The position numbers were made by a program, and so were the translations under genes. Positions 4,359 to 47,050 of a stretch of 64,000 nt of DNA are shown here, one piece after another. The first letter of the stretch is position 1. Each line of letters starts with the position of its first letter. The DNA is taken from IMG/VR virus record IMGVR_UViG_3300031746_000001; one strand, given 5' to 3'. The notes under the pieces were generated by a model that saw nothing but the letters and a program-made list of their open reading frames with translations, was not told the DNA's origin and searched no databases. The stretch comes from a virus.

Positions 4359-4579
4359 GTTTTCCTCCTGATAAACTGCCGTGCGATCCCATGAGCTGAC
4401 TGCGCCATATTAAGCCCCCCGTTGATCTTCCGAAGGAACTTCTCTTTCTGGCATTTTCTTATCGGGGCAACGGCAACCGTTCCCCGGAGATACCGAGGGA
4501 CAACTTTCTCCATAAGATGCTTGCTCATCTCATCGAACTGGTCGGACTGCATGAACTCTATCAGCTTTTTAGCATCCAT
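4355..4579 (-). CDS. hypothetical protein
   Basis: Coupled ORF. Confidence 0.5.
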   Translation of the reverse strand: MDAKKLIEFMQSDQFDEMSKHLMEKVVPRYLRGTVAVAPIRKCQKEKFLRKINGGLNMAQSAHGIARQFIRRKT

Positions 4580-5004
4580 CAGATTGGCTCCTTAACTCGG
4601 ATTTCCCCATCCGGAACGAAAGGCGCCAAATCGAAGATCGCCAAAGCGTTTCTCATCGCTTCGATCCGACCCTCCGCACCGAGAAAGGTAGTGGTATAGC
4701 GAAATACTTCATCGAGAGAAGCATTATAATCCAAACTGAAAAGTATCCTGCCCGTAGTGACCTCGACGACGCAAAGCCCTTCCTTCTTCTCGGACATCGG
4801 AACGCCGTCTTTGAACCTCTGTAACTGGATGGGTCGCTGGATAAACAGCCGGAACTCCTCAAGGCCGGGAACGGTTATCTCCTCCCCGAGCTCCCGCTTC
4901 CAAGCCACCTCCCCCGGCGTCTCCGTAGTCACCGCCACGAGGAACTCCTTCTGCGATCCCTGCGGATCCAGAACTTCATCCGGATTGGTGATCTGATTAT
5001 TCAT
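4579..5004 (-). CDS. hypothetical protein with tail IRVKEPI
   Basis: ATG shares its A with the CCA of tRNA-Pro. Confidence 0.6.
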   Translation of the reverse strand: MNNQITNPDEVLDPQGSQKEFLVAVTTETPGEVAWKRELGEEITVPGLEEFRLFIQRPIQLQRFKDGVPMSEKKEGLCVVEVTTGRILFSLDYNASLDEVFRYTTTFLGAEGRIEAMRNALAIFDLAPFVPDGEIRVKEPI

Positions 5005-5080
5005 GGTCGGGGAGGCCGGGCTCGAACCGGCGACCTCCTGCTCCCAGGGCAGGCGCTCTTGCCATCTGAGCTACTCCCCG
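5004..5080 (-). tRNA. tRNA-Pro(TGG), C33
   Basis: Cloverleaf; anticodon arm CCTGC-CCTGGGA-GCAGG; CCA encoded. Confidence 0.9.
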
Positions 5081-5090
5081 ATCATCACAG

Positions 5091-5167
5091 TGGTCGGGGT
5101 GAGAGGATTTGAACCTCTGACGTCCTGGTCCCGAACCAGGCGCTCTACCGGACTGAGCCACACCCCG
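5091..5167 (-). tRNA. tRNA-Pro(CGG)
   Basis: Loop TTCGGGA; CCA encoded. Confidence 0.92.
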
Positions 5168-5173
5168 ATCTTT

Positions 5174-5248
5174 AGCGGGGACGACGGGTTTCGATCCCGC
5201 GACCTCCTGCGTGGCATACAGGCGCTCTACCATCTGAGCTACACCCGC
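5174..5248 (-). tRNA. tRNA-Gly(GCC), irregular acceptor stem
   Basis: Loop ATGCCAC; 2 extra nt in the 3' acceptor strand; no CCA. Confidence 0.7.
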
Positions 5249-5256
5249 TCGTCTTA

Positions 5257-5344
5257 TGGCGGAGCGAGAATGATTCGAACATTCGGGACCCGTGAGTCCA
5301 ACGGTTTAGCAAACCGTCGCCTTCGACCACTCGGCCATCGCTCC
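5257..5344 (-). tRNA. tRNA-Ser(GCT)
   Basis: Loop TTGCTAA; long variable arm; CCA. Confidence 0.9.
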
Positions 5345-5350
5345 GGGATC

Positions 5351-5426
5351 TGGTGCCGGAGGGCGGTATCGCGCCGCCTACGCCAGGCTCTTCAGACCTG
5401 CGCTCTACTATTTGAGCTACTCCGGC
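5351..5426 (-). tRNA. tRNA-Phe(GAA)
   Basis: Loop CTGAAGA; atypical T-loop CGCGATA; CCA. Confidence 0.85.
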
Positions 5427-5431
5427 TAATC

Positions 5432-5516
5432 TGGTGCCGAGAGAGGGATTTGAACCCTCACGCCAAAGGCACACGCCCCTCGAACGTGCGTGTCTACCAA
5501 GTTTCACCATCTCGGC
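5432..5516 (-). tRNA. tRNA-Leu(GAG), C33
   Basis: CACGT-TCGAGGG-GCGTG; variable arm; CCA. Confidence 0.88.
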
Positions 5517-5522
5517 ATTAAG

Positions 5523-5593
5523 CTGAGGGAGAAGGAGTCGAACCCTCATCACAAGGTTCAAAGCCTTGCGGCCTACCGTTGGCCTATCCCCCA
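5523..5593 (-). tRNA. tRNA-Gln(TTG)
   Basis: Loop CTTTGAA; no CCA. Confidence 0.85.
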
Positions 5594-14694: not shown

Positions 14695-15408
14695 TTAAAA
14701 CCGGACGGGTTGGTCCTGCGTGGTTTCCGGATGCGCCTCAGTCTCCGGAGGATCTTCGATCAACCGGGGTCCGCCCACTCGTGCGGCTACCCGGATAAGG
14801 GTATCCACAGGAAGCGGTCTGAAAATATCCTCGTAGTTATACGGCGTAGGCATGTTGCGCCGACCGTCGGCGTAGGGCGCCAGATCGGTCACCGTTCCCA
14901 CGAAGTCAAAGACGCTCCCAACCACGGACGACTTACCGGTCCCGGTGTCCACCCTCGTGACGCTGTAGAGGCAGTTCCTCAGCCCGTTCGTCCCCTTCTT
15001 CAGCCTTAAAAGCTCAAGGGGTTCCACGGAGGCCACGAAGAGCATCCGGACGTTCCGAACTAGCTCACCGGTATCCTTCGCTTTCCAAGCCTCGAGATCC
15101 ACGATCGTGAAGACCCCCTTATACCAGGGACTGCACTTCAAGGCCGGGTTGCAGAGCGGGCACTGTCCGTAGGTGTCTGCCCCGCAGGTGTAGTGTTGCC
15201 AATCTGGGGTAGCCGGAGACGCTCCCAGGTTGACGGAGTGTTCGTAGAAGCAGAACGGCTCATCGTCCAGGAAGAGAATCTTCTTGGTCACGTTCTGCGG
15301 ACGTCCGGCAGAGACGATACTTCTGTCTAACCGGATTCCGAACCGGAACACACGGGCTCGCCTCGACTCGTCGAGGCCTCCGAATCCTCGCTTATACCAC
15401 TCGCTCAT
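14695..15408 (-). CDS. putative Zn-binding single-stranded DNA-binding protein
   Basis: EH...C...CPLC; acidic tail ending in F; position between primase and helicase; start ATG 15408. Confidence 0.55.
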   Translation of the reverse strand: MSEWYKRGFGGLDESRRARVFRFGIRLDRSIVSAGRPQNVTKKILFLDDEPFCFYEHSVNLGASPATPDWQHYTCGADTYGQCPLCNPALKCSPWYKGVFTIVDLEAWKAKDTGELVRNVRMLFVASVEPLELLRLKKGTNGLRNCLYSVTRVDTGTGKSSVVGSVFDFVGTVTDLAPYADGRRNMPTPYNYEDIFRPLPVDTLIRVAARVGGPRLIEDPPETEAHPETTQDQPVRF

Positions 15409-19882: not shown

Positions 19883-19911
19883 ATTATATCATAAACGAAA
19901 TTGCGTGTCAA
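19883..19911 (-). promoter_or_regulatory. sigma70 promoter of the replication module
   Basis: TTGACA-17-TATAAT. Confidence 0.85.
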
Positions 19912-19923
19912 GATGGTAAGTAA

Positions 19924-20772
19924 TTATATCCCCCCCACCACGTGCGGGCTTTCTTCGGTATCGGACTCGGGAGCAGGGGTCATAGCCGGAGCATCTAGAT
20001 CGATCTCCGGCAGGGGAACTACCAGGGTCACTGGATCCCCGGGACGGGCTGGGCCCAAAGGAGGGTCGGTATCCATCCCCCCTATTCCTTCCTCCAACCC
20101 CATAACATCCCTCATCGCCCGATCGAATCCCTCCATGTGCTCCCCAAATTCCCTAACGTCTCGATCTCTTCCCCCGCCCACTACTCTGCGGGGTCCGAGC
20201 CCTCCGGTTACCATTCCAGCTCCGGTCGGTGGTCTCCTCTCCTGCATTAAGCCCTCGAGCCTCCTTAGAATGGTCCGGTACTGCCCGAAGAGATTATCAA
20301 GCCGCTCGTCCGTATGGTGACGGAACCTCTCGAAGTCCTCCTGAAACTCCCTAACGTCTCGATCTCTTCCCCCGCCCACTACGTCCCGACGACCATAGAA
20401 CTCACCGGCGTTGTAGACCTCCTTTAAGATGGCGACGATCCTGGTTGTTAGTATGCCGTCCGCATCATGGATCCCGGGAGTCGGAAAGACGGGCGCTAGA
20501 GTATACAAAATCCTCCGCATAGCGTTCCCGACGATCGTCTGTTTCTGAGCCAGGGCATGCGTCCACTCCCGATCCGGAGACTGCCCCAAGTGCACCGTGC
20601 TCCCCTCCGGAAACTCCATCGGGTCGATCCTCCTCGTTATGCCCGCCCCTAAACCCGTCCTCTCCTGAAAAACCGTTTCGGGATCCCTCAGATTTTCCTC
20701 CCGGGGAACGTCCATCTCCCTGAGCTCCCCTGGACCCTCCGTTCCCGCAGTATTCCCCAATGGCTCGCTCAT
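19924..20772 (-). CDS. hypothetical protein with internal repeat; tail PHVVGGI
   Basis: VVGGGRDRDVREF occurs twice; SD GGAGG. Confidence 0.7.
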   Translation of the reverse strand: MSEPLGNTAGTEGPGELREMDVPREENLRDPETVFQERTGLGAGITRRIDPMEFPEGSTVHLGQSPDREWTHALAQKQTIVGNAMRRILYTLAPVFPTPGIHDADGILTTRIVAILKEVYNAGEFYGRRDVVGGGRDRDVREFQEDFERFRHHTDERLDNLFGQYRTILRRLEGLMQERRPPTGAGMVTGGLGPRRVVGGGRDRDVREFGEHMEGFDRAMRDVMGLEEGIGGMDTDPPLGPARPGDPVTLVVPLPEIDLDAPAMTPAPESDTEESPHVVGGI

Positions 20773-20825: not shown

Positions 20826-21560
20826 CTATAGATAACCCCTCACATAGAACTTTGCCGTGCTCTCGTCCGCAAGGAAGAGGACGGAATTGGGGAACCAGTG
20901 GCAGTGGCCCTTATCGGAATGCCACGACTGATTCACCATCCCCCCGCAGGGACACGCTCCGTCGATCTCAACCCAGGCGTACCCGGCCCGGATGATCTGC
21001 TTAATGTAACCGAACGTCTTATTGAAAATAAACTTCTTGTCGTGGGACACTAGCGGGAAGACACTATCCACCAACACAAAGTCCCCAATCGACAGCCCGT
21101 AGAGGGTCGTCGGATGCTCTGGACCGTCCACGACCACCTGTCCCGTCACCTCATCGACCCGAGCTATTCTTTCCCTGGGCTTGTAACCCTCTGCAGGCTT
21201 GGCCTCCGGCCAACCCTCGGGAAGCCCGGGCACTCCCTCCCAACCCGGGACGCCGAAGTAACCCTGCTGGCCTTCAAACCTCACCCCGGTCGCTGGATCC
21301 GCCATGTCCCATGTTCCGCCAGGCGCCCATCTCGACCCAGAAAACCCCAACGCCGAGTAACCCGAGATTCCCGAGAAGCCAGACGCACCGGAGGGGATGA
21401 CTCCGTTAGCCATCTGCTCTATCCTCGCCCGGAGATTTTCAAATTGCCTTTCCAAGAAGTCCGTCCCTCCTGACGGGCGGCTCGAGACGACTAGCGGCGG
21501 GCTCTTCCTCCGCAGTCCGAGACGACGACTCAGCCGTTCAAACAAAGAACCGTCGGCCAT
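20826..21560 (-). CDS. protein with C-terminal SH3/KOW-like domain; tail FYVRGYL
   Basis: LSIGDFVLV...G.I...WVE...GHCHWF. Confidence 0.7.
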   Translation of the reverse strand: MADGSLFERLSRRLGLRRKSPPLVVSSRPSGGTDFLERQFENLRARIEQMANGVIPSGASGFSGISGYSALGFSGSRWAPGGTWDMADPATGVRFEGQQGYFGVPGWEGVPGLPEGWPEAKPAEGYKPRERIARVDEVTGQVVVDGPEHPTTLYGLSIGDFVLVDSVFPLVSHDKKFIFNKTFGYIKQIIRAGYAWVEIDGACPCGGMVNQSWHSDKGHCHWFPNSVLFLADESTAKFYVRGYL

Positions 21561-21802
21561 CAGATCGCTCCTATGATCCGGAAGGGCTCACGCTTCTTGC
21601 TCTCGAAGTCGAGGTCGGCCTCATCGAGAATCCACAGTCCCGCACACCTTTCCAGGCGGACGGAGTAAAGCCGGGGCCCTCCGTTACGCTTTCTCTTCGT
21701 AACCACTCCTTCAATCATTCCCTTCTTGCCCCTGAGCTTGCAACCCTTCTCGGTGAGATTCCGAACGATCTTGATCTGGTCTCCCACCTCGAACTTCATC
21801 AA
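21560..21802 (-). CDS. SH3/KOW-like small protein; tail FRIIGAI
   Basis: FEVGDQIKIV...GKKGMI...YSV. Confidence 0.7.
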   Translation of the reverse strand: MMKFEVGDQIKIVRNLTEKGCKLRGKKGMIEGVVTKRKRNGGPRLYSVRLERCAGLWILDEADLDFESKKREPFRIIGAI

Positions 21803-22176
21803 ATCGATCCCACAACGTGCGGGGTGTCATCCAGAGCGACCTGCTCCTCCGCTGGCGGTTCGGGATTGGGCTCTATTACCTGCGTCGGAGGAATATCGCC
21901 CATCATTTCACGATCCCCCCCTATCTCACGGCGCAGTTCATCTAGCGCTTCCCGAGCCGCTCTCGCCGGGGTATCCAGATCGCCTGCCATTCCCCGGTGG
22001 GGTTCGGTGGTCCCGCCGGTTCTCATGCGAAGCTCTCTCCGGAGCTCTTCCATATCGACATGAAGGGCTTCTATTCTGCGCTCAATCCGTTGAAGGGCAT
22101 CGAGAACTCGAGACATGTAATGCATAGGGCCACCGTCTACATGGTCGATATCCCTCTCTCGCATTGGCATAGCCAT
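21799..22176 (-). CDS. coiled-coil hypothetical protein; tail PHVVGSI
   Basis: Coupled ORF. Confidence 0.7.
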   Translation of the reverse strand: MAMPMRERDIDHVDGGPMHYMSRVLDALQRIERRIEALHVDMEELRRELRMRTGGTTEPHRGMAGDLDTPARAAREALDELRREIGGDREMMGDIPPTQVIEPNPEPPAEEQVALDDTPHVVGSI

Positions 22177-22553
22177 CAGATGCCCTCCCTGATCCCGAAC
22201 TTTTCTGGGACAAGAACGAGCTCGTTCTCTTTGAAAGTGAGGGTAGTTTTCGCCGGACCCGGGATTTTAATAACATACTCGTCGTGGTCGATCTTAACCT
22301 TCATGCTGACATTGAGAGTCCCATCGGACGGGTCGAGATCCACCCCGGTGACCTCAGCGTCCTTAACGATATGCACGATGTTAACTACCTCGCCCTCCAA
22401 CCCAATATAGTCTTCTGGAACGACGTATCCCGGGCGGGAGGCCGTAACCTTCACCTGATCGCCAAGATTGAACTTGGTTTTCGTTCCAGGTATGTCGGCT
22501 GGACCCGACCCATTCAACAAACCCTCCACTCTTTTGGAAGACAGAGATATCAT
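22176..22553 (-). CDS. SH3/KOW-like protein; tail FGIREGI
   Basis: KFNLGDQVKV...IGLEGEV...FKENEL. Confidence 0.7.
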   Translation of the reverse strand: MISLSSKRVEGLLNGSGPADIPGTKTKFNLGDQVKVTASRPGYVVPEDYIGLEGEVVNIVHIVKDAEVTGVDLDPSDGTLNVSMKVKIDHDEYVIKIPGPAKTTLTFKENELVLVPEKFGIREGI

Positions 22554-22825
22554 AGCCCACCTACAATCCCGAACTCACCCTCCGTCGCCTCGAGCTCGTC
22601 CTCCGTGAACCACCAGCCGTGACCTCCCGGAAGAACCCCGTCGCAGTCGGAGAGAAAAGGCGACTCGGCTTCGAAGCGGACGGCATACTCCTCATGGCAC
22701 TCATTGCATATAGCCCCGACGACCCCGACCCGCCCGATCATGAACTCCCTGAACGCCTTATCGTCCGGGTCCAGGGCGTCGCTCACGGATATCACCTTGA
22801 CGGGATCCCCAATGCTAAACGGCAT
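22550..22825 (-). CDS. SH3/KOW-like protein; tail FGIVGGL
   Basis: FSIGDPVKV...YAVRF...LSDCDG...GWWFTEDELE. Confidence 0.72.
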   Translation of the reverse strand: MPFSIGDPVKVISVSDALDPDDKAFREFMIGRVGVVGAICNECHEEYAVRFEAESPFLSDCDGVLPGGHGWWFTEDELEATEGEFGIVGGL

Positions 22826-23277
22826 CAGAGCGACCCGATCACAAAGATCTGCTTGGATTCAGACAGGACGTCCTCGAGCCGGGCAGACAGGAGACTGTCC
22901 TCCCGCATCCAAATCCCGCTGTAAGGCGAAAGCCTCTGACCGCAATCCGATAGGTCGGGATGCTCCACCCCGAACCCGATAGCATACTGGTAGAACAGAC
23001 CAAAGCTCCCTTCGGTTAGATCGACCTCACAAATAATTCCCGCAGTCATCCGGAATAAATCTTCGAGCCCGGGCTTATTTCTCAGCCACGCCTCTAGAAC
23101 TTGATCTTCGGGATGGACGACAACCCTCACAGCATCCCCCACCTTGAACTTAGGTTGTGGCTTTGGCTCGGGGTCGGTATAGGTGTTGATCTCCTCGCCA
23201 AAGTCCACTCCCATAATAGGATGGGCGAACACTGCAATCCTTGAAGCCTCATCATTGGTATATTTTATAGACATCAT
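22825..23277 (-). CDS. SH3/KOW-like protein; tail IFVIGSL
   Basis: KFKVGDAVRV...LSDCG...GIWMREDSL. Confidence 0.72.
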   Translation of the reverse strand: MMSIKYTNDEASRIAVFAHPIMGVDFGEEINTYTDPEPKPQPKFKVGDAVRVVVHPEDQVLEAWLRNKPGLEDLFRMTAGIICEVDLTEGSFGLFYQYAIGFGVEHPDLSDCGQRLSPYSGIWMREDSLLSARLEDVLSESKQIFVIGSL

Positions 23278-23639
23278 ATCCCTCCAATCACAATGGCCTT
23301 CTCTCCGACCTTCGACACGAGCTCGAGCTCGTCCCCCAGGAACGGGGCATACCCGTCAAAGGACTTATCCTGGACCCCGGAACCGGACTTAAAGAAGGCC
23401 ACGACGTAAGCCGTGACCTTCATTTTTTCTCCCCGCTGAATTCTAACGTCCTCAATGACCCCCAGCTTCAGGAGAAGACTGCTTCGATCAGTTAGCTCTC
23501 CCCCCATAGTAATCGCCTTAACAGGCCCCCTGTCATTTCGAAAGGGCAGTCCCTCGGGAAAGAGAAAGGAGTTATTGGCATCCACAAGCATCGTAACCTT
23601 CACCACATCTCCGATCTTGAATCTCCGCTTGCCTCTCAA
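23274..23639 (-). CDS. SH3/KOW-like protein; tail AIVIGGI
   Basis: Start moved to coupled TTG 23639; RFKIGDVVKV. Confidence 0.65.
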   Translation of the reverse strand: MRGKRRFKIGDVVKVTMLVDANNSFLFPEGLPFRNDRGPVKAITMGGELTDRSSLLLKLGVIEDVRIQRGEKMKVTAYVVAFFKSGSGVQDKSFDGYAPFLGDELELVSKVGEKAIVIGGI

Positions 23640-23950
23640 ATCGGCTCCCTCAAGAATATCCTCTCCTCGGAGGTAATGAACTCGACGTTGCACCGGTGAG
23701 AAAACAAGGCCAGGCACTCGTCCGATGGAATGTCCACTCCCCGAGGAGGAAACGACCTCTTCCTGTCCTTCCGCTTCAGGTCGAGGCAGATGAACATGGT
23801 ATCGTAGTGGAGAGCCCCCTCCGCAGGCTTGAGGGCAACGACGACCCCCATATCGTTCTTGAACTCGTTGCGATGCATCGCACAACGGCAGGTGACCTTG
23901 ACGGTGTCGCCCACCTTGAAATCCTGGAGCTTGAAGGACATCACTCCCAC
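23636..23950 (-). CDS. SH3/KOW-like protein; tail IFLREPI
   Basis: FKVGDTVKV; overlaps the E1 stop. Confidence 0.65.
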   Translation of the reverse strand: MGVMSFKLQDFKVGDTVKVTCRCAMHRNEFKNDMGVVVALKPAEGALHYDTMFICLDLKRKDRKRSFPPRGVDIPSDECLALFSHRCNVEFITSEERIFLREPI

Positions 23951-24645
23951 TCAAAGAGCTGATCCTGAAGCTGGAAGCTCACGTCGGCTACGGTCTCGAA
24001 CGGGATGGGCTGTCCGGTGAAGTGCCTCCGGACGATCCGGGTGATGTAAGAGGCGATGAGAAAGCCCACGTCGATGATCGCCCTGGCCGTGCAGGGCAGG
24101 TCGGGAACCGTCTCATCCGGCACGATCGTCTGCTCGTAGCGTTCGATGGACTCCGTCGAGACGGTATCCTTGACGGACAGGATGCGTAACTGTTGACCCC
24201 CGAGCCGCCCGTCGATAAACAGCTTCACCCCGGGGTTGCGCCGGATCCCGGACTCCCAGATCTCCTTCCGACCTTGCATTGTGTCCACCCCGCAGACCAC
24301 GAGGTCGGTCGTGATCAAATCCTTCGGGTACGGGTTATCCTTCGGAGGAAACCTCATGACCCAGGTCTTGATCTCCTCAATGCCCGTAAGCTCCTTAATT
24401 AAGCGAGCGGCGGCAACGACCTTTGCCTCCTCCACGTCATTCATCCGGAAGAGCTGATTAGGAACGTTGTGGGCTTCCACAACGTCCGGATCGACGAGCA
24501 CGAGGCTCTTGATCCCCAGCTTTCCGAGAGCGAGCGCTGTGAATGACCCGATCCCTCCGACGCCTATGACCGTGGCGGAGACTGGAGTCTTTTCGGGATT
24601 AAAAAAGTCTGTCTGACGCCAAAAATCACGATTCATGCTCTGCAT
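23941..24645 (-). CDS. ThiF/E1-like adenylating enzyme
   Basis: GVGGIGS, DPDVVEAHNVPNQLF, K, GVD..R, DGR; candidate catalytic Cys in PCTA. Confidence 0.9.
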   Translation of the reverse strand: MQSMNRDFWRQTDFFNPEKTPVSATVIGVGGIGSFTALALGKLGIKSLVLVDPDVVEAHNVPNQLFRMNDVEEAKVVAAARLIKELTGIEEIKTWVMRFPPKDNPYPKDLITTDLVVCGVDTMQGRKEIWESGIRRNPGVKLFIDGRLGGQQLRILSVKDTVSTESIERYEQTIVPDETVPDLPCTARAIIDVGFLIASYITRIVRRHFTGQPIPFETVADVSFQLQDQLFEWE

Positions 24646-25052
24646 TTCAACTCACCTCCTTGACCTAAATAATCAGCGGCATTACGTAGCAATATGGGGT
24701 CGTGGCGAAAGTTCCCCAGTCCGAGATTGCATTCATAGTGTAGAAGTCCACGGATTTTGACCGTCCGAACATATCCGGTGTGGTCAAAATCTTCCTCGTG
24801 GTCAATACACAACCGCACTCCGTTCTCTGGTGGTTCGTGACAAATTTTACACACTCCGCCCTGCTTGCAAAGTTCAGACTCGTAAAATTTTAGAGGATCA
24901 GCTATGCCCAGCTCTTTTATTCTTCTCCTCCATACGATATCTGTGTTATATCCAGGACGCAAAGCCTTCTGCGCCTCTAGTATGCGCTCCCTATTTTTTG
25001 CATAGTAATGATGTTTCGTAGTTTCCGGGTGCGCATACTTGAAATCTCTCAT
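24633..25052 (-). CDS. free-standing HNH endonuclease, endonuclease VII-like
   Basis: QGGVCKIC...LCIDH...IRGLL...CNLGLG.F...L..AADYL. Confidence 0.85.
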   Translation of the reverse strand: MRDFKYAHPETTKHHYYAKNRERILEAQKALRPGYNTDIVWRRRIKELGIADPLKFYESELCKQGGVCKICHEPPENGVRLCIDHEEDFDHTGYVRTVKIRGLLHYECNLGLGNFRHDPILLRNAADYLGQGGELKCRA

Positions 25053-25141: not shown

Positions 25142-25777
25142 TCATGGGCCCTCCAGGACCTGCTGGCGCCCGGTCTTCGAGGCTTCGATCAACCCCTCCA
25201 CTTCAGGAGCCTCCAAAGAGCCCTCATCGCCCTTCTCCGTAGAACGAAAAAGTTTCTCCGTCATCTCCTGCTTCACCCCGGCGATCAAGCCCTTGTCGTA
25301 CTCGTCGAAGAGAATGTCGAGCTTGGCCTCCGCTCTGAACCTGGTCGGGGAGTAGACTTCGATCTGCGCCGAATATTCCCCGCTCTTGTTGACCACGATC
25401 CACAGGAACCACTCCGAGAGATCGGCAAGGCTATTCATGCAGGCCCTGTCCGTCCCGCTGAAGGACGCTGGCATATTCACATGGCTATGCCAGCACAGAC
25501 GATACTTCCCGGTGTCCTGCTTCGCCTCCATCAGCCGGGAGAACTCATCGGCGATATCCTGCGGGTCGAGGTCCGCCGCCGCCGCACTGCGATTCTCGTG
25601 CTTGAAAACCATCACGTCGTCGATGACGGGCTTGTTGCCCCGCATCTGGACCGTCCCGAGCCCGGCCACCTCCACGTTCGTCTCTTGGGCGAAGAGCAGG
25701 ATTTTACGCCACGCCTTGAGAGTAATCTTCAAAGACGGCACCCCAACAACGTCGTCGTCCGTCCTCCTAGTTTTCAT
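25142..25777 (-). CDS. JAB/JAMM (MPN+) metalloprotease
   Basis: EVAG...WHSHVNMPASFSGTD = E...HxH-x7-S-x2-D. Confidence 0.9.
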   Translation of the reverse strand: MKTRRTDDDVVGVPSLKITLKAWRKILLFAQETNVEVAGLGTVQMRGNKPVIDDVMVFKHENRSAAAADLDPQDIADEFSRLMEAKQDTGKYRLCWHSHVNMPASFSGTDRACMNSLADLSEWFLWIVVNKSGEYSAQIEVYSPTRFRAEAKLDILFDEYDKGLIAGVKQEMTEKLFRSTEKGDEGSLEAPEVEGLIEASKTGRQQVLEGP

Positions 25778-27243
25778 CTCGCATCCTCCGTTTTTGATTT
25801 GGGAACCTTGCCGAAAATCTTAATATACTTGCTTTGAACCGAACTGTCCTTCCACTCTGAGATCGTCTGCCCCCATCCGTCTGAGGGCGTCACAGACTGC
25901 ACGATCCCAACCATCAGATCGATAAGCTCGAAGAACCTCATCCCGGAAAGGAGCTCCTGGACCGTCGATCCGGAATTCCCCCAACAGACGTTGTCCGGCG
26001 TCTTGATGTGCGGGTGAGGCCGTCCCGATGGCGGGGGATAGAGATTGGTCACGATGACCTGATGGGCCCCCTCCGCCAGAGGAAGGGTGAACTGATACTG
26101 CCCAAGCCACCATTCGTTCCAGGAGATCGGCTTGGTCACAACCTCGAGCCGCATGTTATTCTCCGATCGCCCGTCTGCCGCAATGAACCTGATCCGGTCG
26201 ATCTTGGGATGGCTTCTCAGGGCTTCGATCTGCTCCTTAAACATCTGATCGACCTTCCCGGCGAGGGTCTTGTGAATCTCGAGGGTGATCTCGAGGGTGT
26301 GCCGCTCATCGTAGTGCAGGCGAAGCGTCCGGGCGGCTGTGTCGATCTTCCCCTTCAGGTCCTTTAGGGCGGCACCGACCTTCTCGACCTCCGTATTATG
26401 CCGGGCATTCAGAGCGTCGAGCAAGATCGGCCCGACCACAAAGTCCCTTGAGAACCTGGACTTAACTTCATCGACCCACTTCTTGAGGGGATCGGGATCC
26501 TTGACATCCGACAGCCACAGCAAGACGATATACTTCGATAGGTTAACCTTGTCCTCGAGCTCGACCCCGTTAAGGTCTTTCCGGTGGGCGATGTCCCACA
26601 GGAAGAACAGGTTCCGATCCTTCCAGAGAGCCAGGGCGATGCCCTGATCGTCGGTCATGATCTTCCAGCCCTTATCCGTGAAAGCTTTAGGGTTGGACAG
26701 CTCGAGGCAGTCCTCTTCCCCGGACATCATCTTGAAATCCCGCCCCAAGACGGCGAACCGTTCCCGGGTTCCCTTCTTAACTACGTTCCCGGCTTCGGCA
26801 TCCGGAAAAGCCAGAACGAAAATCCGGAACCGCTCGTCGACGAACTGATCCACGTCGATCCGAACATTCTTGGGAGGCGTCTCCGCATGGGGGATGATTA
26901 CCTCAGCCTTGAGCCCGGCGAACTTGTTGAGCCACGAGAACATCCCCTCGGCGTTCTCGAGAGTGGGAATGATAAACCGGGGCCCCGGCGCTGGCGCTGG
27001 CTTCTTGGGCGCCTCTACGGCGTCCCTGCGATCCCTCCGACCCGTGATCGGGGGAAAGGCGATATCGTTGGCAGTGCTCATATCAGTGCTCCACGGCCCC
27101 GGGTAGAGAAGCCCCGCAACCTGTTGGGCATCCTCTTCCGAAACCTGAACCTCTGAGGAATTGATACGGGCATACCTGATGCGGGATCCTCTCAGGAGTT
27201 CCTCCTGCTCCCTCGAGCATGTAAATGCCCTCCATCGTGCCAT
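25774..27243 (-). CDS. coiled-coil protein with C-terminal prokaryotic E2-like domain
   Basis: PHPHIKTPDNVCWGN (HPH followed by Cys); located between Ubl and JAB. Confidence 0.7.
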   Translation of the reverse strand: MARWRAFTCSREQEELLRGSRIRYARINSSEVQVSEEDAQQVAGLLYPGPWSTDMSTANDIAFPPITGRRDRRDAVEAPKKPAPAPGPRFIIPTLENAEGMFSWLNKFAGLKAEVIIPHAETPPKNVRIDVDQFVDERFRIFVLAFPDAEAGNVVKKGTRERFAVLGRDFKMMSGEEDCLELSNPKAFTDKGWKIMTDDQGIALALWKDRNLFFLWDIAHRKDLNGVELEDKVNLSKYIVLLWLSDVKDPDPLKKWVDEVKSRFSRDFVVGPILLDALNARHNTEVEKVGAALKDLKGKIDTAARTLRLHYDERHTLEITLEIHKTLAGKVDQMFKEQIEALRSHPKIDRIRFIAADGRSENNMRLEVVTKPISWNEWWLGQYQFTLPLAEGAHQVIVTNLYPPPSGRPHPHIKTPDNVCWGNSGSTVQELLSGMRFFELIDLMVGIVQSVTPSDGWGQTISEWKDSSVQSKYIKIFGKVPKSKTEDAR

Positions 27244-27304: not shown

Positions 27305-27338
27305 TCTGCAGACCTAGAGCTTGGACCCCCGAGGGGAC

Positions 27339-27575
27339 TTACCCAAGTCTAAGGGACTTCATCACCACGACCTTCGAGCCGGGCATGATCACGTCGTTCA
27401 GGCCGACTGGCCGCCCGTCGACGTTGACCGTGTAGGCTTCTGCCTCCTTCCCCTTCGCGCCGACCTGCTGTTCCATCATCTCGGCTACGGTGAGCCTCTG
27501 CCCATCCGTTGGAAGCTGAGGCGTCGATGGCGTCGCTCCGAGCTTGGTCAGATAGAAGAAGTTTTCGTTATCCAC
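27339..27575 (-). CDS. ubiquitin-like (ThiS/MoaD beta-grasp) protein ending LRLG
   Basis: TVAE...VNVDG...NDVIMPGSKVVV...G-COOH; 78 aa; AGGGAGGTGA SD. Confidence 0.8.
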   Translation of the reverse strand: MDNENFFYLTKLGATPSTPQLPTDGQRLTVAEMMEQQVGAKGKEAEAYTVNVDGRPVGLNDVIMPGSKVVVMKSLRLG

Positions 27576-27619
27576 TTACGTCACCTCCCTTCGTTTGAAA
27601 TGAGTTAAACGTCCTGCGA

Positions 27620-28147
27620 CTAACCCGTCCTCAAGGACGGATCGGTCATGATACGAACCTGCTCCGGATTGGCCTTGATGATATCCACGAGGGTGTCCTT
27701 CGTTCCCGCCTCGTTTGGCGGTGGAACCCACACGACCTTCCAGACGTCCACAGGCTGTTGCCTCCCGTCCTTCTCGGTATTCACCCGGAGGCCGAGCTGG
27801 GTCTTGTCCCACTGCTTGAACTTCTCCCGGATATCCCGGTAGAACAACTGCATAGCGACGTTCTCCATCGTCTCGAAGCGGAAGTATTCGACCGCCAGTT
27901 TGGCAACCTGCTCGAAGTCCTTCACGCTCATGTGGAAGTCGATTTCGTTCTTCGTCCGCAGACGGTGGAAGCGCCAGAAGAATACCTCCCGATACCGCTC
28001 CTGCCACTCCGCAGACAGATTGTCGACGACCACGACGTCCCGCTTCTCGTCGAGCGGATCGAGCGTAGTCACATACGCCCACACCTGCATGAGCTGTGGA
28101 TCGACGAACTGCGGGGGCTCCCCCGTATAGACAATTTCCTGAGCCAC
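27620..28147 (-). CDS. hypothetical protein
   Basis: Strong SD GGAGGTG before GTG. Confidence 0.65.
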   Translation of the reverse strand: MAQEIVYTGEPPQFVDPQLMQVWAYVTTLDPLDEKRDVVVVDNLSAEWQERYREVFFWRFHRLRTKNEIDFHMSVKDFEQVAKLAVEYFRFETMENVAMQLFYRDIREKFKQWDKTQLGLRVNTEKDGRQQPVDVWKVVWVPPPNEAGTKDTLVDIIKANPEQVRIMTDPSLRTG

Positions 28148-28176
28148 GATTCACCTCCTCTCTAAGAACTCAGTCC

Positions 28177-29417: not shown

Positions 29418-29441
29418 CCTCCGTTGATAATTTGCATTTAG

Positions 29442-31196: not shown

Positions 31197-31225
31197 ATTA
31201 TAACGGTTCTCAACTTGATTGTCAA
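31197..31225 (-). promoter_or_regulatory. sigma70 promoter for PolX
   Basis: TTGACA-17-TATAAT overlapping the LAGLIDADG stop codon. Confidence 0.85.
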
Positions 31226-35538: not shown

Positions 35539-35898
35539 TCACAGCCCTCCCTGGACCCCAAACTTTTCCTCCTCTACAGCAGTCTCCCCGGCAATATCCT
35601 TCCATGTGAACCGATCCATCTTCAGGCATAAGTCGAATACCCCCATCGAGAAGTCCCTGGTCAAATTCATGACATTCGAGAACTGGTAGCCCGCCACGGC
35701 CCCGTCGAATCCGATCTCATGCAGGTAGGCCACCTGCTCCTCCCGAGAGAAGCCGTCATAGTTCCCGTTCGCGAAGATAAATGAGAGTCCGGGATGCCCG
35801 GCGCCGATGTCATACTCTTCGTAGGCCACGCCCCGGGTCCCTGCCGGACACCCGAGCATCCCTTCAACCTTCAAGGTCACCACAGACCCGACTCTCAT
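35539..35898 (-). CDS. SH3/KOW-like protein; tail FGVQGGL
   Basis: MRVGSVVTL...GTRGV. Confidence 0.65.
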   Translation of the reverse strand: MRVGSVVTLKVEGMLGCPAGTRGVAYEEYDIGAGHPGLSFIFANGNYDGFSREEQVAYLHEIGFDGAVAGYQFSNVMNLTRDFSMGVFDLCLKMDRFTWKDIAGETAVEEEKFGVQGGL

Positions 35899-37963: not shown

Positions 37964-38191
37964 TTAGCCGCCCGGACGGTCCTTGTGCTCGACCACCTCT
38001 TCAGCCCCGCAGACGTCCTTGAGCCACTGCGAAGCCTCTTCCTGCGTGGCAAACTTCCCCCAGCCCACTTCCTCTCCCGCATCCCCGATCTGGCTCCCGT
38101 CCCAGGGCTTGTCTCCCCGCAGGAGATGCACCCGGCCAACGCAACGTCCTTCGTAGAAGCCCTCCAACAGAATGACCTGTCGATCATCCAT
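37964..38191 (-). CDS. hypothetical protein
   Basis: GGAGG SD before ATG 38191. Confidence 0.5.
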   Translation of the reverse strand: MDDRQVILLEGFYEGRCVGRVHLLRGDKPWDGSQIGDAGEEVGWGKFATQEEASQWLKDVCGAEEVVEHKDRPGG

Positions 38192-38939
38192 CTTGTCCTC
38201 CTCTCGCCTTCTTGCATCCTGGCCAGTGAAAACTCTCTTCACCGACCGCCATGTCCGTGAAATACCACGTCCCGTTCTTCCCCCTGCAGAAGTCAAAGCT
38301 CCAGTAGCCCTTCCCCATCGCCACCCCGAGACGCCGGGCGTATTCCTTGAGCTTCTTCAGCTCCTTCAATCCGATTTTCTGCATCTCATCGAGAATCTTC
38401 TCCCAGAGTTCGGGGGGACGGTCCGGATGGAGATCGAACTCATCTTCCGGAAGGACTGGCCGTTCAATAGACTCCGGAGGCCAGTAGGGATGCTCGCATA
38501 CTACCCTCGTCCCGTTCACGAACAGCCTCCGCTCCACTGCGATCGGCATCTCCCCCCAGAAGGCCGTGAACCTGGCATCGAGATCCAAGAACTTCCGGAT
38601 AGCCACGCCCTCAAAGGAGACGTCGACCGCAAGGCTGAAGTCGAGAAGTTTAAAGATACGAGCGGGGATCTGTTCGATGCTCTCCACATAACAGCTCTTT
38701 TTCCACTCATGCTTGTTGCTGACCCTATCGCTCCGCAGGAAGAGCGGAAACCCTATCTCCGGAGCCCTCCTCTGGACCTCCCGGCGCAGAGCGTCGAAGG
38801 TCTTGTTCTTTCCCCCGTCGAGGGCCTTGATAATACCCCTCGGGTCCCGGCAGGGAATTAAAATCGTCTTGGGCATGGGGATCGATAGCTCCTCGACCCG
38901 GGGCCACCAGTAGAGCATGCTGTTGGGATTACTGCTCAC
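38184..38939 (-). CDS. ATP-grasp-like protein
   Basis: FPLFLRSD...KH, IRKFL, ERRLF, WSFDF...WYFTDMA; start moved to GTG 38939. Confidence 0.6.
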   Translation of the reverse strand: MSSNPNSMLYWWPRVEELSIPMPKTILIPCRDPRGIIKALDGGKNKTFDALRREVQRRAPEIGFPLFLRSDRVSNKHEWKKSCYVESIEQIPARIFKLLDFSLAVDVSFEGVAIRKFLDLDARFTAFWGEMPIAVERRLFVNGTRVVCEHPYWPPESIERPVLPEDEFDLHPDRPPELWEKILDEMQKIGLKELKKLKEYARRLGVAMGKGYWSFDFCRGKNGTWYFTDMAVGEESFHWPGCKKARGGQDG

Positions 38940-39118
38940 TGCTTCGCCTTCGCCAACCCCTCGTCCTGCTCGCAGGAAATGCACTGCGTTCCCTGGCCTC
39001 CGGGGATGCACTCCTCCACGCACCCGGGCTGGTGGCAGACATAGCACTCCACAATCTGCTTGGTCGGTTCACCACACTGCGGACACTTCTTTTTCTCGAC
39101 TGCTTGCTCTTCGGCCAT
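38936..39118 (-). CDS. small Cys-rich Zn-finger protein
   Basis: Four CxxC pairs in 60 aa. Confidence 0.65.
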   Translation of the reverse strand: MAEEQAVEKKKCPQCGEPTKQIVECYVCHQPGCVEECIPGGQGTQCISCEQDEGLAKAKQ

Positions 39119-39461: not shown

Positions 39462-39917
39462 TCAAATTTCTCCTTCTACAGTGATCACTTCGGAACCCGA
39501 AGGGTCTATGGACGAGCACTTGAGTTCATAAATAGGTTCCTCCTTCACGCCCACCTGGACATACTGGCACTTCTCGCCCTTGAAAAATCCCAAGACCTTA
39601 ACATCCCCACAGTCCCAAGTCCGGCGTTTGATCTCAGCATAATCCTCCGGACGTTTGGTTTTCTGTCGATAGCCCTTCTGAGCCAAGAACCGAAGCAGTG
39701 GAGATATTTCCATCATGTGGTCAAGATCACAGTGAACAAGAATCCCGTTCACCTGCCCCCACATCCATCCCACACTGATCGACTGGATAAGGTCCGGAAA
39801 GACGAGCTTCGCCCCTAGCGCCACGTTCGCGGCGGGAACGAGCCCCTCGAGATAGGCAACCTTAGTCTTAACTATCTGTATTTCGGCCAGGATAAAATCC
39901 GGCGTCAAATTATGCAT
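39462..39917 (-). CDS. hypothetical protein; tail ITVEGEI
   Basis: Coupled ORF. Confidence 0.65.
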   Translation of the reverse strand: MHNLTPDFILAEIQIVKTKVAYLEGLVPAANVALGAKLVFPDLIQSISVGWMWGQVNGILVHCDLDHMMEISPLLRFLAQKGYRQKTKRPEDYAEIKRRTWDCGDVKVLGFFKGEKCQYVQVGVKEEPIYELKCSSIDPSGSEVITVEGEI

Positions 39918-42701: not shown

Positions 42702-42926
42702 CTATAAAGACCCGATCACCCCGAAGGCTTCCTCCCGAAAAATTTCCACCTGATCATACCAGAATAACTTTTCCGAGGGGTAGTTATCGAGCTTGATCCA
42801 GACGAGCCCGGATTCTGCCTGATCGGTAACGTATCCTAATTCCCCCAGAAACTTCACATCTCGTTCCCCATTAACTCTCACAATCCGAACCCGTGGGCGT
42901 CGATCAAAGTGATTTCCGAATATCAT
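42702..42926 (-). CDS. SH3/KOW-like small protein; tail FGVIGSL
   Basis: RVRIV...GELGYV...WIKLD. Confidence 0.65.
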   Translation of the reverse strand: MIFGNHFDRRPRVRIVRVNGERDVKFLGELGYVTDQAESGLVWIKLDNYPSEKLFWYDQVEIFREEAFGVIGSL

Positions 42927-43189
42927 ATCTCGCCCTCCACTCCGAAGGGCTTCTCCTCTTCCTTCTCGAGCTGAACCTCCTCGAGGTATCTTCCAGCCCC
43001 CTTCTTGGCTTTCCCCGAGCAGTCGTGCAGGCCGAGAGACTCCTTGTCCATCTGGACCCCGTAGAGAAAATCGCTGGCCTTAACTTCCACGATCGTCCCG
43101 GCCTCATTGAGCAACCCTTCTTCTTCCTGCGTATGCTCCCAAGTCACCCTGACCCGCTGGCCGACCTTGAACTTCGGCTTCGAACTCAC
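42923..43189 (-). CDS. SH3/KOW-like protein; tail FGVEGEI
   Basis: Start moved to GTG 43189; KFKVGQRVRV...YGVQMD...LHDCSG. Confidence 0.7.
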   Translation of the reverse strand: MSSKPKFKVGQRVRVTWEHTQEEEGLLNEAGTIVEVKASDFLYGVQMDKESLGLHDCSGKAKKGAGRYLEEVQLEKEEEKPFGVEGEI

Positions 43190-43599
43190 AGCTCCCCGAT
43201 CACTCCGAAGCCCTCCTCGTTCAGGGACGGTTTCCGAGAACGCCTTTGCTTTTCCTTCCGGGTGACCATCTGGACGGCGGCCATCGCTAGAGTCCTTACC
43301 GTGTTCCGATAATGCGCCCGGGTCACCTGATCGGATGGGTAGTAAACGGGATGATCGGACACGAGCTTGAGCTGAGACCTCCCAAGCCACAGACCACGAT
43401 CCGGAAGGCAACACCCATCACAGGTATTCAGATCCCGATGTCTCTTGTTGAACTGGACGGCGTAAGCCCCGGCATGTCCGGCCCCCTTAACGACCCCCCG
43501 AGTCCCGACCAGGAAACTATAATCGGACTGGGAATGGATCTGAAGGACTTCGACGTGGTCGCCAACCCTTAATTTCTTTCGCTGATAAATCCTAGCCAT
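43186..43599 (-). CDS. SH3/KOW-like protein; tail FGVIGEL
   Basis: LRVGDHVEV...YAVQF...LNTCDG...GLW. Confidence 0.7.
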   Translation of the reverse strand: MARIYQRKKLRVGDHVEVLQIHSQSDYSFLVGTRGVVKGAGHAGAYAVQFNKRHRDLNTCDGCCLPDRGLWLGRSQLKLVSDHPVYYPSDQVTRAHYRNTVRTLAMAAVQMVTRKEKQRRSRKPSLNEEGFGVIGEL

Positions 43600-44678: not shown

Positions 44679-45077
44679 CTATAGACCTTTGGCTGTGACC
44701 TTGCCGCCCTTCAGCTTGGCTTCCGCCCGAGCTTTCATGTCGGCATCGATCTGGACCTTCGGATCGGTCTTGGGCTTGGCATCCGGAGCGACATCAGCCG
44801 GGGCACGCACGGCTGGCTTCTCGGCCTTCGGATTGGCCTCCGGCTTCTTGGCTTCGGCCTTCGCTTTCGGTTGGGCCTTCGGAGCGGCCGCCTTCGGAGC
44901 GGCCTTCTTGGATCCCGGCTTGGCCACGTGCCCGCCCTTCTTGAAAGCCTTCATGATTCGCCACACCATGCCTCTCGAGATCTTCAGGTCCCGAACGATC
45001 TGGGAATCCTTCTTGCCCTCCTTGTGCAGGGCGATCACCCGATCACGGTATGCGTCTGCGGACTTCTTATTTGACAT
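44679..45077 (-). CDS. HTH protein with histone H1-like K/A/P-rich tail
   Basis: SQIVRDLKISRGMVWRIM; KKAAPKAAAPKA. Confidence 0.7.
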   Translation of the reverse strand: MSNKKSADAYRDRVIALHKEGKKDSQIVRDLKISRGMVWRIMKAFKKGGHVAKPGSKKAAPKAAAPKAQPKAKAEAKKPEANPKAEKPAVRAPADVAPDAKPKTDPKVQIDADMKARAEAKLKGGKVTAKGL

Positions 45078-45113
45078 TCTGATTCACCTCCCATCATTCA
45101 CTTAGATTTAAAT

Positions 45114-45350
45114 TCACCCGATTCGTAGAGTAGCGATGATTATTATTTTATCCCCAGGATACACTTTCTTCCTTCTGGTTCTCCGCTTTCCGTTCACGTG
45201 AATTCGTAACCACTTCGTCGTGGATATTCTCGCGGCTAGGAAAACCTGTCCAACAGATTCACCACTGGATGGAACGAGCACAATCTTAGGCACGTGACCA
45301 AGACGGTAAATTATGACACGCCCCCATTCTTTCTTTTTCATATTCTCCAC
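45114..45350 (-). CDS. second ubiquitin-like beta-grasp protein ending LRIG
   Basis: SVGQVF..A.I......VNG......V.PGDKIII.....G-COOH. Confidence 0.65.
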   Translation of the reverse strand: MENMKKKEWGRVIIYRLGHVPKIVLVPSSGESVGQVFLAARISTTKWLRIHVNGKRRTRRKKVYPGDKIIIIATLRIG

Positions 45351-45363
45351 GTCTCTCCTTTTG

Positions 45364-45487
45364 ATTTGGGGTTCGCCTGCAGGTTACTTGGGATATCCTG
45401 CGTGGCCTTAGTGCGGGGGTGGACTCTGCGTCATGGTGTCGGATACGCACACCGTCTTGCGAGGTCGCACCCCGCACCCCTCGGCTC
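45364..45487 (-). ncRNA. candidate structured intergenic RNA motif, copy 2 (expanded loop)
   Basis: Same stems as copy 1, with about 50 nt in place of the 4-nt loop. Confidence 0.5.
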
Positions 45488-45913
45488 TCAGGCTACGACA
45501 ACCGTCCCCTGAATGGCCTTGACCTTGAGCTTCTTCCCGGCCTTGACCTTGAGCTCCGGCTTCTCGCTGTGACTCGTCGAAGCCGCCAGGGAAGTGGTCA
45601 GGATGATCTGCGTGGCCTCGTTGACCTTCGTGAGGGCGAGCTCGAAGGCGTCCTTATACTTGGGCGTATCCCGTGGCGTGATCGATGCCACGATCGTGAC
45701 CTCACCAACCGCCACTTCCTGGTTGGGATAGGCCATTACCTGATGGACGGTCTCGCCCCGGAACCCCTCTTCGATTTCTCCGAGCCGCTTCAGTTCGGCG
45801 TTCAGATTGCTGATGTTGGCTTTCACGGTCATCCACTCCTTGAGCGATGCCCTCAAATTGCCCTCAGCCTGAACGGGCGGCTGAATGTTGATACCGACAT
45901 CGTTCTGCTTCAT
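45488..45913 (-). CDS. hypothetical protein
   Basis: Coiled coil; start moved to ATG 45913. Confidence 0.6.
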   Translation of the reverse strand: MKQNDVGINIQPPVQAEGNLRASLKEWMTVKANISNLNAELKRLGEIEEGFRGETVHQVMAYPNQEVAVGEVTIVASITPRDTPKYKDAFELALTKVNEATQIILTTSLAASTSHSEKPELKVKAGKKLKVKAIQGTVVVA

Positions 45914-45917
45914 GGCT

Positions 45918-46235
45918 TCATACTCCTTTCGTTCCGAACTCTGCATCGAGCTCCCGGACCGCCCGCTGGGATCCCGGCAGGTATCCGAACTGACCGTAGA
46001 AGGCATCCCGGAAGAGGGACATCGCCAGGGCGCTCGAGATCCGCCCGTGATCCGTCCCGTCGAACATGAGATGACCGCCCTTCACTGCGATGACCCCGTT
46101 GTAGGGCTCCTGCCCCCCGAACTCCTTGTGGGCGCCAGGGGAAGTCACGAACAGCCTGATCTCTTCGCCCTCAAGCGTCTCGAGAAGCCTCGGGGCCATC
46201 CATCTCGTAAAGTCCTTCGCTGTCTTCGGGGTCAT
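45918..46235 (-). CDS. hypothetical protein
   Basis: SD GAGGAG. Confidence 0.6.
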   Translation of the reverse strand: MTPKTAKDFTRWMAPRLLETLEGEEIRLFVTSPGAHKEFGGQEPYNGVIAVKGGHLMFDGTDHGRISSALAMSLFRDAFYGQFGYLPGSQRAVRELDAEFGTKGV

Positions 46236-46237
46236 GG

Positions 46238-46540
46238 CTAGCTCCTCTCTTCGCCAACGTGGATTTTGAAAGCCTTGCGGGATTTCTTCGGGGGCTTGAT
46301 GCTGGCGAGGATGGCCGGATAGATCGAATCGTTGATCCCGACATTCGGCGGAAGATGAACCGCCACGCTCATGGGCGCCCGCTTTCCGTCCTTCCTGGCT
46401 TCCCAGATAAAAACCACCGGAGCCTTGCCTTCGTCGAGCATCTCTCCCCGGCCTCTGAAAATGTCCAGGCCGGAATCGATGCCGCTCCGAAAGTCGTAAC
46501 CCACGATGGTCTGCGTCCTGCTGATCTTCACTTCTGACAT
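46238..46540 (-). CDS. hypothetical protein
   Basis: First gene after a promoter cassette. Confidence 0.65.
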   Translation of the reverse strand: MSEVKISRTQTIVGYDFRSGIDSGLDIFRGRGEMLDEGKAPVVFIWEARKDGKRAPMSVAVHLPPNVGINDSIYPAILASIKPPKKSRKAFKIHVGEERS

Positions 46541-46591
46541 CTTGCTCTCCTCCTACTTGGGGTTAGGGGATTACCTGCTTACCACGATACC

Positions 46592-46620
46592 ATTATACCT
46601 AATTCGTAATTGACAGTCAA
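46592..46620 (-). promoter_or_regulatory. sigma70 promoter of the repeated promoter-leader cassette
   Basis: TTGACT-17-TATAAT. Confidence 0.85.
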
Positions 46621-46725
46621 GGGCTTTGCCGAGAATTCTTTAAAATCTTTTCCTCATAGGGTATGTTCGTTCACTATCTTTCAAGGGCGTAGGAACCATG
46701 ACCCACGCCCCTGCGGATCGTAGCC

Positions 46726-47050
46726 TCACAAGCCCCCCACGACGCCGAACGGTGCGTCATCATCGGTAGGGACGGGCGATTGGGCATCCGGCCTTCGAGC
46801 TCGCACCGTAGGCCGGGGTGTAGGCCGACGCTCCGTCCTTTCCATCTCCCTCCGTAGGGACGTGCAGGGACGGATATCCCCGACCACGTGCCAGAAGCCC
46901 CGGGCATCATGCCTTGAGATCGTCCACCTCGTAACGAGCGCCTTCCGTCCGGAGGCCGTTCGGGAACTGAACCCAGCCATCCCTGCCCTGCGGTCGCACC
47001 CGCAGTTTCCGTTTCGACGGATCGTAGACGACTTCTAAGATTACGCTCAT
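46726..47050 (-). pseudogene. frameshifted gene; joined product ends FGVVGGL
   Basis: MSVILE...LRVR...WVQFPNGLRTEGARYEVDDLK, then +1 frame HDARGFWHVVGDI...; one extra base near 46912. Confidence 0.6.

Follow-up and report, generated by a model that had tools for sequence, protein, structure and literature searches.

A shared C-terminal tail on about one gene in seven

In a 64,000-nucleotide stretch of IMG/VR record IMGVR_UViG_3300031746_000001 (hereafter the window), part of a 159,907 bp contig of an uncultured tailed phage with genes on the minus strand, 24 tRNAs and sigma-70 promoters, we found that about one gene in seven encodes a small protein with a common seven-residue C-terminal tail, and that nine of these tagged genes stand directly behind an operon for a ubiquitin-like protein (Ubl) and its E2, JAB and E1 enzymes. 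In our favored and probable explanation the tail works as a short linear docking motif: it would bind one shared partner as a beta-strand whose carboxylate is free.

All 16 tails singled out by a first-pass annotation of the sequence do end minus-strand open reading frames (ORFs; 15 intact genes and one remnant, at 46726). Scoring ORF ends with a position-specific matrix, the check that the annotation had proposed, separated them cleanly: on a profile of the nine last residues, the 16 tails scored 12.8-22.2 bits (6.1-18.5 in leave-one-out), and the best of the 499 remaining window ORF ends scored 1.3 bits, so that the scores are bimodal. None of 269 opposite-strand ORFs reached 8 bits, internal 9-mers did so at a rate of 2.6e-4, and residue-shuffled genes gave a mean of 0.027 hits (maximum 1) versus the 16 observed. 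With the same profile we identified 21 tagged genes, every one on the coding strand, in a complete relative (IMGVR_UViG_3300035660_000001, 160,139 bp, here G001; 85-90% identical to the window phage in E1 and E2). Six of these 21 have no window counterpart and were not used in the profile, and they thus provide an independent test (P ~1e-10).

The motif, which follows an acidic spacer, reads [FIP]-x-[VIL]-x-G-x-[IL]-COOH. Among 31 distinct tails, position -1 is Ile or Leu in 31/31 and always terminal, position -5 is Val, Ile or Leu in 31/31, position -3 has Gly 26 times and Glu five times, and position -7 is Phe, Ile or Pro in 30/31, while positions -4 and -2 vary freely. The pattern first proposed therefore holds, except that position -7 is also Ala once (AIVIGGI), and so does the remark that acidic residues often precede it (Glu at -9 in 18 tails; -10/-9 mostly acidic). 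The likely starts of four tagged ORFs are 23639, 23941, 21799 and 43189, not the longest-ORF starts. Two IMG/VR DNA-pattern scans for the tail, which covered some codon and stop forms only and so do not prove absence, returned G001 and otherwise just chance hits; the tail profile, run against PDB sequences, had chance matches only; and a de novo search for common tails across 172 E1 loci returned acidic EEE ends alone.

Selection on the peptide and the question of translational coupling

Orthologs conserve the tail, a point that the first-pass annotation had named as decisive. Across 15 orthologous pairs, tail identity is 95% and body identity 72%, and in the most diverged pairs (19924 and 21799) the 20 preceding columns match at 4/20 and 7/20 and the tail at 7/7. 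Codon changes in the tails of the 15 pairs comprise 15 synonymous and five conservative replacements (3:1), and judged by these substitutions the tail is under protein-level selection. Different window tails share 91 identical codons versus 88 expected from genome usage, and the G001 tails show a mild codon excess (GTG at -5); codon choice near genome usage thus argues against a copied DNA cassette.

As 12/16 window tagged genes are overlap-coupled to the next gene and 10/16 carry a Shine-Dalgarno (SD) site in their last codons, the tail could be thought a by-product of translational coupling, in which an SD plus an overlapping stop and start spread with the gene junctions; the GTG excess at -5 in G001 points the same way. 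However, 4/16 (window) and 8/21 (G001) tagged genes are not overlap-coupled yet keep the motif, a loose -1/-3/-5 rule is satisfied by 0/22 (window) and 0/52 (G001) other SD-coupled gene ends, and silent changes exceed replacements in the ratio given above. We consider this explanation, already largely refuted, very improbable. The motif is neither confined to nor common among SD-coupled ends, and we rejected membership of the tails in a class of SD-overlap junctions. The earlier argument that the tail is not an SD artifact is upheld, including its detail that a separate SD follows the stop of the gene ending at 42702. Embedded SD sites account only for the Glu variants: the three window tails with Glu at -3 are all written AAG or AGG followed by GAG, which is the SD of the next gene.

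A portable tail on several kinds of protein

The bodies had been called largely unrelated. Several distinct body types do occur, but about nine of them share a divergent small SH3/KOW-like barrel that starts F-x-V-G-D; the remainder are helical, lysine-free or ligase-derived, with membrane-like examples in G001 (two tagged proteins with membrane-like stretches, hydropathy 1.8 and 2.4), and mutual similarity among tagged bodies is restricted to two small groups. Pfam and PHROGs contain no family for the tagged bodies scanned, and a profile search seeded with the tagged barrels had no hits beyond this clade and L092, the nearest outgroup, which is more distant and AT-rich (a contig of only 4.8 kb; E1 53% and E2 30% identical).

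The nine-gene array, on the minus strand as are all tagged genes, opens with a 101-amino acid (aa) SH3/KOW-like protein coupled to the E1 stop (23636..23941), whose tail, IFLREPI, is SD-overprinted. Four further SH3/KOW-like proteins follow, of 121 aa (23274..23639, AIVIGGI), 150 aa (22825..23277, IFVIGSL), 91 aa (22550..22825, FGIVGGL) and 125 aa (22176..22553, FGIREGI, again SD-overprinted), and then a 125-aa lysine-free helical protein (21799..22176, PHVVGSI; ortholog body 46% identical, tail 7/7), a 79-aa SH3/KOW-like protein (21560..21799, FRIIGAI) and two uncoupled genes, for a 244-aa protein (20826..21560, FYVRGYL) and a 282-aa lysine-poor protein (19924..20772, PHVVGGI). Elsewhere lie a 119-aa protein (35539..35898, FGVQGGL); a 151-aa protein with no copy in G001 (39462..39917, ITVEGEI); a 74-aa SH3-like protein (42702..42926, FGVIGSL) whose four orthologs have Ser or Thr at -2; an 88-aa SH3/KOW-like protein (42923..43189, FGVEGEI); a 137-aa SH3/KOW-like protein with a helical extension, encoded by the first gene past a promoter at 43736 (43186..43599, FGVIGEL); and a 141-aa protein with the SD-overprinted variant IRVKEPI (4579..5004), whose ortholog is 57% identical in the body and 5/7 in the tail, with conservative changes.

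The tail behaves as a portable element, as had been proposed, because body homologs in other phages are untagged and because a duplicated ligase domain gained it. An AlphaFold2 model of the 22550..22825 protein places an SH3/KOW-type barrel at residues 1-80 and the tail (residues 86-91, predicted local distance difference test <50) outside it; structure matches of this barrel are KOW, Tudor and PsaE-like folds at Z 6-7.7, none outstanding, and its homologs in other genomes have different ends and no tag. Both G001 and L238 (L238 and L091 are fragments from one or two additional close genomes) encode an ATP-dependent ligase and, behind it, a 75% identical copy of the first 63 ligase residues; this duplicate has acquired a linker and the tail. 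The window retains a broken chimera of the two (46726..47050, FGVVGGL), with the 5' end of the ligase out of frame with the tagged duplicate: the ligase, kept in both relatives examined, was lost here when it recombined with the duplicate, which deleted it and left a +1 frameshift near 46914. The junction is identical over 600/600 bases in a separate assembly (Logan SRR9617950). The ORF at 46726, listed at first as a tagged gene, does carry the tail, but it is the 3' half of a frameshifted gene starting at 47050.

The barrels raise the question of whether the tails simply bind one another, zipping together or swapping into the first strand of neighboring KOW barrels to give a mixed oligomer that needs no reader. 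The tail has a generic beta-strand pattern, and the first strand of the barrels, F-x-V-G-D-x-V, has the same -7/-5/-1 spacing. Yet position -4 switches between Arg/Lys and Glu, the tag also occurs on membrane and non-barrel bodies, and zipping needs no strictly terminal position; we regard such self-assembly as quite improbable.

The adjacent ubiquitin-like operon

The operon, on the minus strand, is, to judge by its domains and intact catalytic residues, genuine. The Ubl (27339..27575; beta-grasp; family hidden Markov model (HMM) E=4e-13) ends in SLRLG. Next come an E2-like protein (25774..27243) comprising an N-terminal alpha/beta domain of unknown fold, a long helix and a UBC domain with an invariant Cys420, and a JAB peptidase (25142..25777; PF14464, E=4e-9) whose E/HxH/S/D motif is intact, in invariant columns. 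The E1 (23941..24645; PF00899, E=1e-18) is a stand-alone ThiF-family adenylase of 234 aa with one ThiF domain and an invariant Cys185. An EndoVII-type HNH endonuclease (24633..25052; PF02945), absent from G001, is inserted between JAB and E1. The top 50 Foldseek matches of the E2-like protein are all E2 entries (best E 0.004); its N-terminal domain has no Atlas hit, and the fold search is a weak test there.

As the annotation had it, the nine tagged genes lie directly downstream, behind E1; seven of the ends overlap the next start, and the order of operon and array is kept in three genomes. The nearest perfect sigma-70 site upstream of both is at 31197..31225, and another (12/12 consensus) at 19883..19911, both on the minus strand, stands directly past the last tagged gene and marks the end of the array; the promoter reported after the gene ending at 19924 is thus present. 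The stretch from 31225 to 19911 has no strong promoter inside it, and a perfect one closes the array; co-transcription of operon and array is therefore likely, as predicted from promoter positions.

The phage operon has the Ubl, E2 with Cys, JAB and E1 found together in Bil and Bub systems, but its E1 is not of the IAD-AAD-CYS type, and a scan of genes at 23941-30017 found no DUF6527, the domain that is part of the Bub fusions (definitions from PMC11601596). Operons of the E2-JAB-E1-Ubl type also occur in many Methylomirabilota, Solirubrobacterales and Chloroflexi genomes (L171-L223) and apparently form an uncharacterized class, and relatives of the E1 are present in crAss-like and Flavobacterium (Fpv) phages, where they are annotated as 'thiamine biosynthesis protein'.

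Trimming and conjugation as an unlikely reading of the tag

The first-pass annotation had offered, as one of two readings, that JAB trims the tail to expose Gly at -3 for conjugation by E1 and E2. The tagged protein would then be attached as a whole to targets, in the way that Cap2 handles CD-NTases. The enzymes all look intact, the G001 Ubl (L010:6182-6421) has one extra Asp past its Gly and hence needs JAB (the window Ubl is born mature), Gly stands at -3 in 25/30 tags and at -2 in 10/30, and one tail type reaches 5.9 bits on a profile built from 76 Ubl-family tails. On that profile, however, the 30 tags compared have median scores of -9.0 (P1 at -3) and -8.1 (P1 at -2) versus 12.9 for Ubls, with at most 2/30 above 5 bits, although the phage's own Ubl ends are also low (1.4-4.8). 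No tag has Gly at -1 (0/30; Ubls have the P1 Gly in 76/76 by definition of P1), and the Glu-Pro tails lack Gly altogether. Ubl tails carry 0-8 unconserved residues past the reactive Gly, and in BilA the residues at this place are likewise unconserved (PMC10557695), whereas the tags are fixed in length and end in Ile or Leu in 30/30 cases versus 7/55 pro-Ubls. An invariant last residue fits a reading pocket, not a discarded piece.

The phage's own Gly-ended proteins are likewise unlike the tags. Besides the Ubl, they comprise a second, stand-alone basic Ubl far from the operon (45114..45350, minus strand, end TLRIG; aligned in the family, present in L238 and not found in G001) and a 175-aa protein without a Ubl HMM hit (27620..28147, minus strand), whose end, SLRTG, is kept in G001. 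All three end [ST]-L-R-x-G, which is probably what the phage E1 reads, going by these ends. The 175-aa protein, encoded just upstream of the Ubl, is by our analysis a candidate second, non-Ubl E1 substrate comparable to CD-NTases; separately, the Atlas search gives it a portal-like lead only.

With no universal Gly register, a fixed conserved end and no P6-P1 likeness, the tags were rejected as BilA-like pro-Ubls, and the sequence comparisons make trimming and conjugation of the tagged proteins unlikely. The objection already raised to this reading, that three tails have Glu at -3, is correct in that they lack Gly there, but these are the tails that coincide with an embedded SD. The PHVVG tails sit on a protein with no lysine (21799-22176, 0/125, in three genomes) and on one with few (19924-20772, 2/282), a possible sign that self-conjugation is avoided; across all tagged proteins the Lys content is 4.6%, versus 6.4%.

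A proposed docking strand and its candidate readers

The tail is strictly terminal, unstructured, graftable and conserved at every second position, and the annotation's other reading, a beta-strand docking signal, fits these properties best, although its virion-loading option is unlikely. We propose that the tail adds as a strand along the sheet edge of one common partner, with residues -7, -5, -3 and -1 facing the partner, Gly -3 packing over a bulky residue, and the terminal Leu or Ile and free carboxylate sitting in a pocket; positions -4 and -2 would point outward, where they could accommodate an SD for the following gene. The variable bodies, whether SH3/KOW barrel, helical or membrane, would each grip a target of their own, which the tail would bring to a common machine. 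A candidate for this machine is the Ubl-E2-JAB-E1 set, which has no E3, and the tagged proteins may then serve as plug-in substrate receptors or be docked substrates themselves. Bil operons lack E3s, and their targets are thought to be recognized through E2 (PMC11601596); because such systems lack E3s and nine candidate receptors stand behind E1, we favor the co-transcribed conjugation set as the leading candidate partner, a possible rather than a probable assignment. A host AAA+ or tail-specific protease ranks close behind, at a somewhat lower likelihood, and another phage or host protein takes the remaining share.

Several observations weigh against this proposal and against its tie to the operon. 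The strand geometry is a candidate derived from the residue pattern. Among 75 loci examined with E1, JAB and E2, the 59 others of at least 8 kb had a single tagged end among 1,676 ORFs, no more than expected by chance, so the tag does not co-occur with the operon across loci, as the annotation had thought to check; the operon therefore works without the tag, which is a feature of the clade rather than of the operon. That clade consists of only three or four close genomes, so the adjacency of tag and operon counts as one evolutionary event, and 12/21 G001 tagged genes are far from the operon. In the outgroup, a barrel gene with an I-G-E-I end directly precedes E2 (L092:3-272), but at 2.1 bits this end is no more than a lead; the same contig has an untagged barrel gene after E1. 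The link of the tag to the Ubl operon is thus positional only. A complex prediction of a 30-residue tail with E2 residues 95-480, JAB and the tail-less Ubl (E1 not included) scored 0.20, below the mark of 0.32, and counts neither for nor against the proposal.

With a host protease as reader, of the AAA+ or PDZ-type tail-specific kind and recognizing the hydrophobic end, the tail would be a C-terminal degron or protease tether, and the tagged proteins would be short-lived or deliver targets for destruction, a special case of docking without the Ubl operon. SspB-type tethers and C-degrons are similar in having a terminal aliphatic residue past an acidic linker; a terminal Ile or Leu with a free carboxylate, as in PDZ ligands, is present in 31/31 tails; the tagged genes are under sigma-70 promoters; and one of the SH3-fold matches, at a Z of 6.7 that many others share, is HspQ (5ycq), an activator of Lon. 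On the other hand, the two-faced seven-residue pattern is more specific than most degrons, and the run of nine behind E1 is left unexplained, so that we hold a degron or tether to be fairly unlikely. PDZ_2, MoxR (PF07728) and vWA (PF13519) domains are all missing from the complete G001 genome; such a reader would therefore be the host's, and a MoxR-vWA client tail was rejected.

Other potential readers are encoded in the window. ATP-grasp proteins could act on C-terminal carboxylates and are candidate readers; there is an R2K-clade ATP-grasp ligase at 38184-39047 (E 7e-7) and a second, weak ATP-grasp at 32668-33228 (E 0.03). The product of 34594-35259 has weak similarity to the sliding clamp (beta subunit; E 0.015 for the G001 ortholog). 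A clamp-binding role of the tail is doubtful, as the clamp-like gene is weak and helicase, primase and ligase are untagged. A protein encoded after the primase (14695-15492) has an acidic tail with a terminal Phe, kept in G001, that resembles the C-terminal tip of single-stranded DNA-binding protein and is a different motif.

Virion or compartment loading, a very unlikely alternative

The docking partner might also be a shell or a virion, with the tail as a loading signal like an encapsulin-targeting peptide. Family 1 encapsulin targeting peptides read L-x-[VI]-G-S-L, often with trailing basic residues, and, like the tags, are C-terminal and follow a linker; some tails end V/I-G-S-L in the manner of this motif (PMC10402063), and the G001 capsid protein is gp23-like. 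Unlike those peptides, the tags are hydrophobic at -7/-5/-1 instead of -6/-4/-1, with Ser at -2 in only 7/31 and no basic or other residue trailing; they mostly have Gly at -6 and a charged or polar -4 in 14/31. Encapsulin PF04454 was not found in the complete G001 genome (the positive control was detected in three genomes), and with no shell gene there the tags were rejected as encapsulin peptides. Virion loading, as the annotation suggested it, is unlikely as well: no tagged gene lies in the structural block (37-105 kb), the two membrane-like tagged G001 proteins described above look membrane-bound, and the head block has an N-terminal leader array of its own. We judge loading very unlikely. 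The leader array is seen in the G001 head region (L005:6504-16051), where many small genes past the capsid gene start M-x-x-L-L.

Significance and comparison with known systems

Most small phage genes have no known function; about 20 of them are here assigned to one pathway by a common tail that is under selection, and the seven-residue peptide is a handle for finding the machine. Short terminal docking motifs in general are already known; what distinguishes this case is a plausible reader next door, with candidate receptors encoded directly behind E1. Within a limited coverage of the literature, no paper came to light on either the motif or arrays of tagged genes next to phage Ubl operons, and the operon is not mentioned in Yutin 2021 (PMC7886860). 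The candidate receptors bear on how bacterial E3-less Ubl systems choose their targets, and phage versions are not characterized in the papers we found. Should the reader be a host protease instead, the virus would have put a single degron or tether on roughly a tenth of its genes.

Bacterial Ubl operon classes were first listed in PMC1779556. Like Bil (type I/II BilABCD) and Bub, the phage operon combines a Ubl, an E2 with a catalytic Cys, a JAB and an E1 without an E3, and residues after the Ubl Gly are optional (PMC10557695 and PMC11601596, available passages). Unlike these systems as those passages describe them, it is phage-encoded, its E1 is a 234-aa stand-alone ThiF type and neither IAD-AAD-CYS nor a fusion, and its E2 has a 330-residue N-terminal extension; a tagged accessory array does not appear in the passages on Bil or Bub. 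It is rather unlikely that the clade has made an E3-less Ubl pathway modular, with about 20 small interchangeable substrate receptors that have their own host or phage targets and plug into E2 (or JAB or Ubl) by way of the seven-residue C-terminal strand, which could be added to any gene; such an arrangement would be a prokaryotic counterpart of F-box or SOCS-box adaptors.

Donor strands in pili complete the beta-sheets of their partners. The Catch domain of midnolin likewise captures strands, and the proposed docking resembles it in that an unstructured segment with an alternating pattern would complete a beta-sheet of the partner, with many unrelated proteins sharing one reader (PMC10617673). 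Unlike the tail, those strands are internal or N-terminal and are found in eukaryotes or pili, and we claim no homology. Protease adaptors and C-degrons (SspB-ClpX, PDZ ligands, HspQ-Lon) share with the tagged proteins the architecture of a folded or variable body, a flexible acidic linker and, at the very end, a short hydrophobic peptide that one machine reads; in contrast to these tethers, the tail has a different sequence and is carried by 16-21 different genes of one virus.

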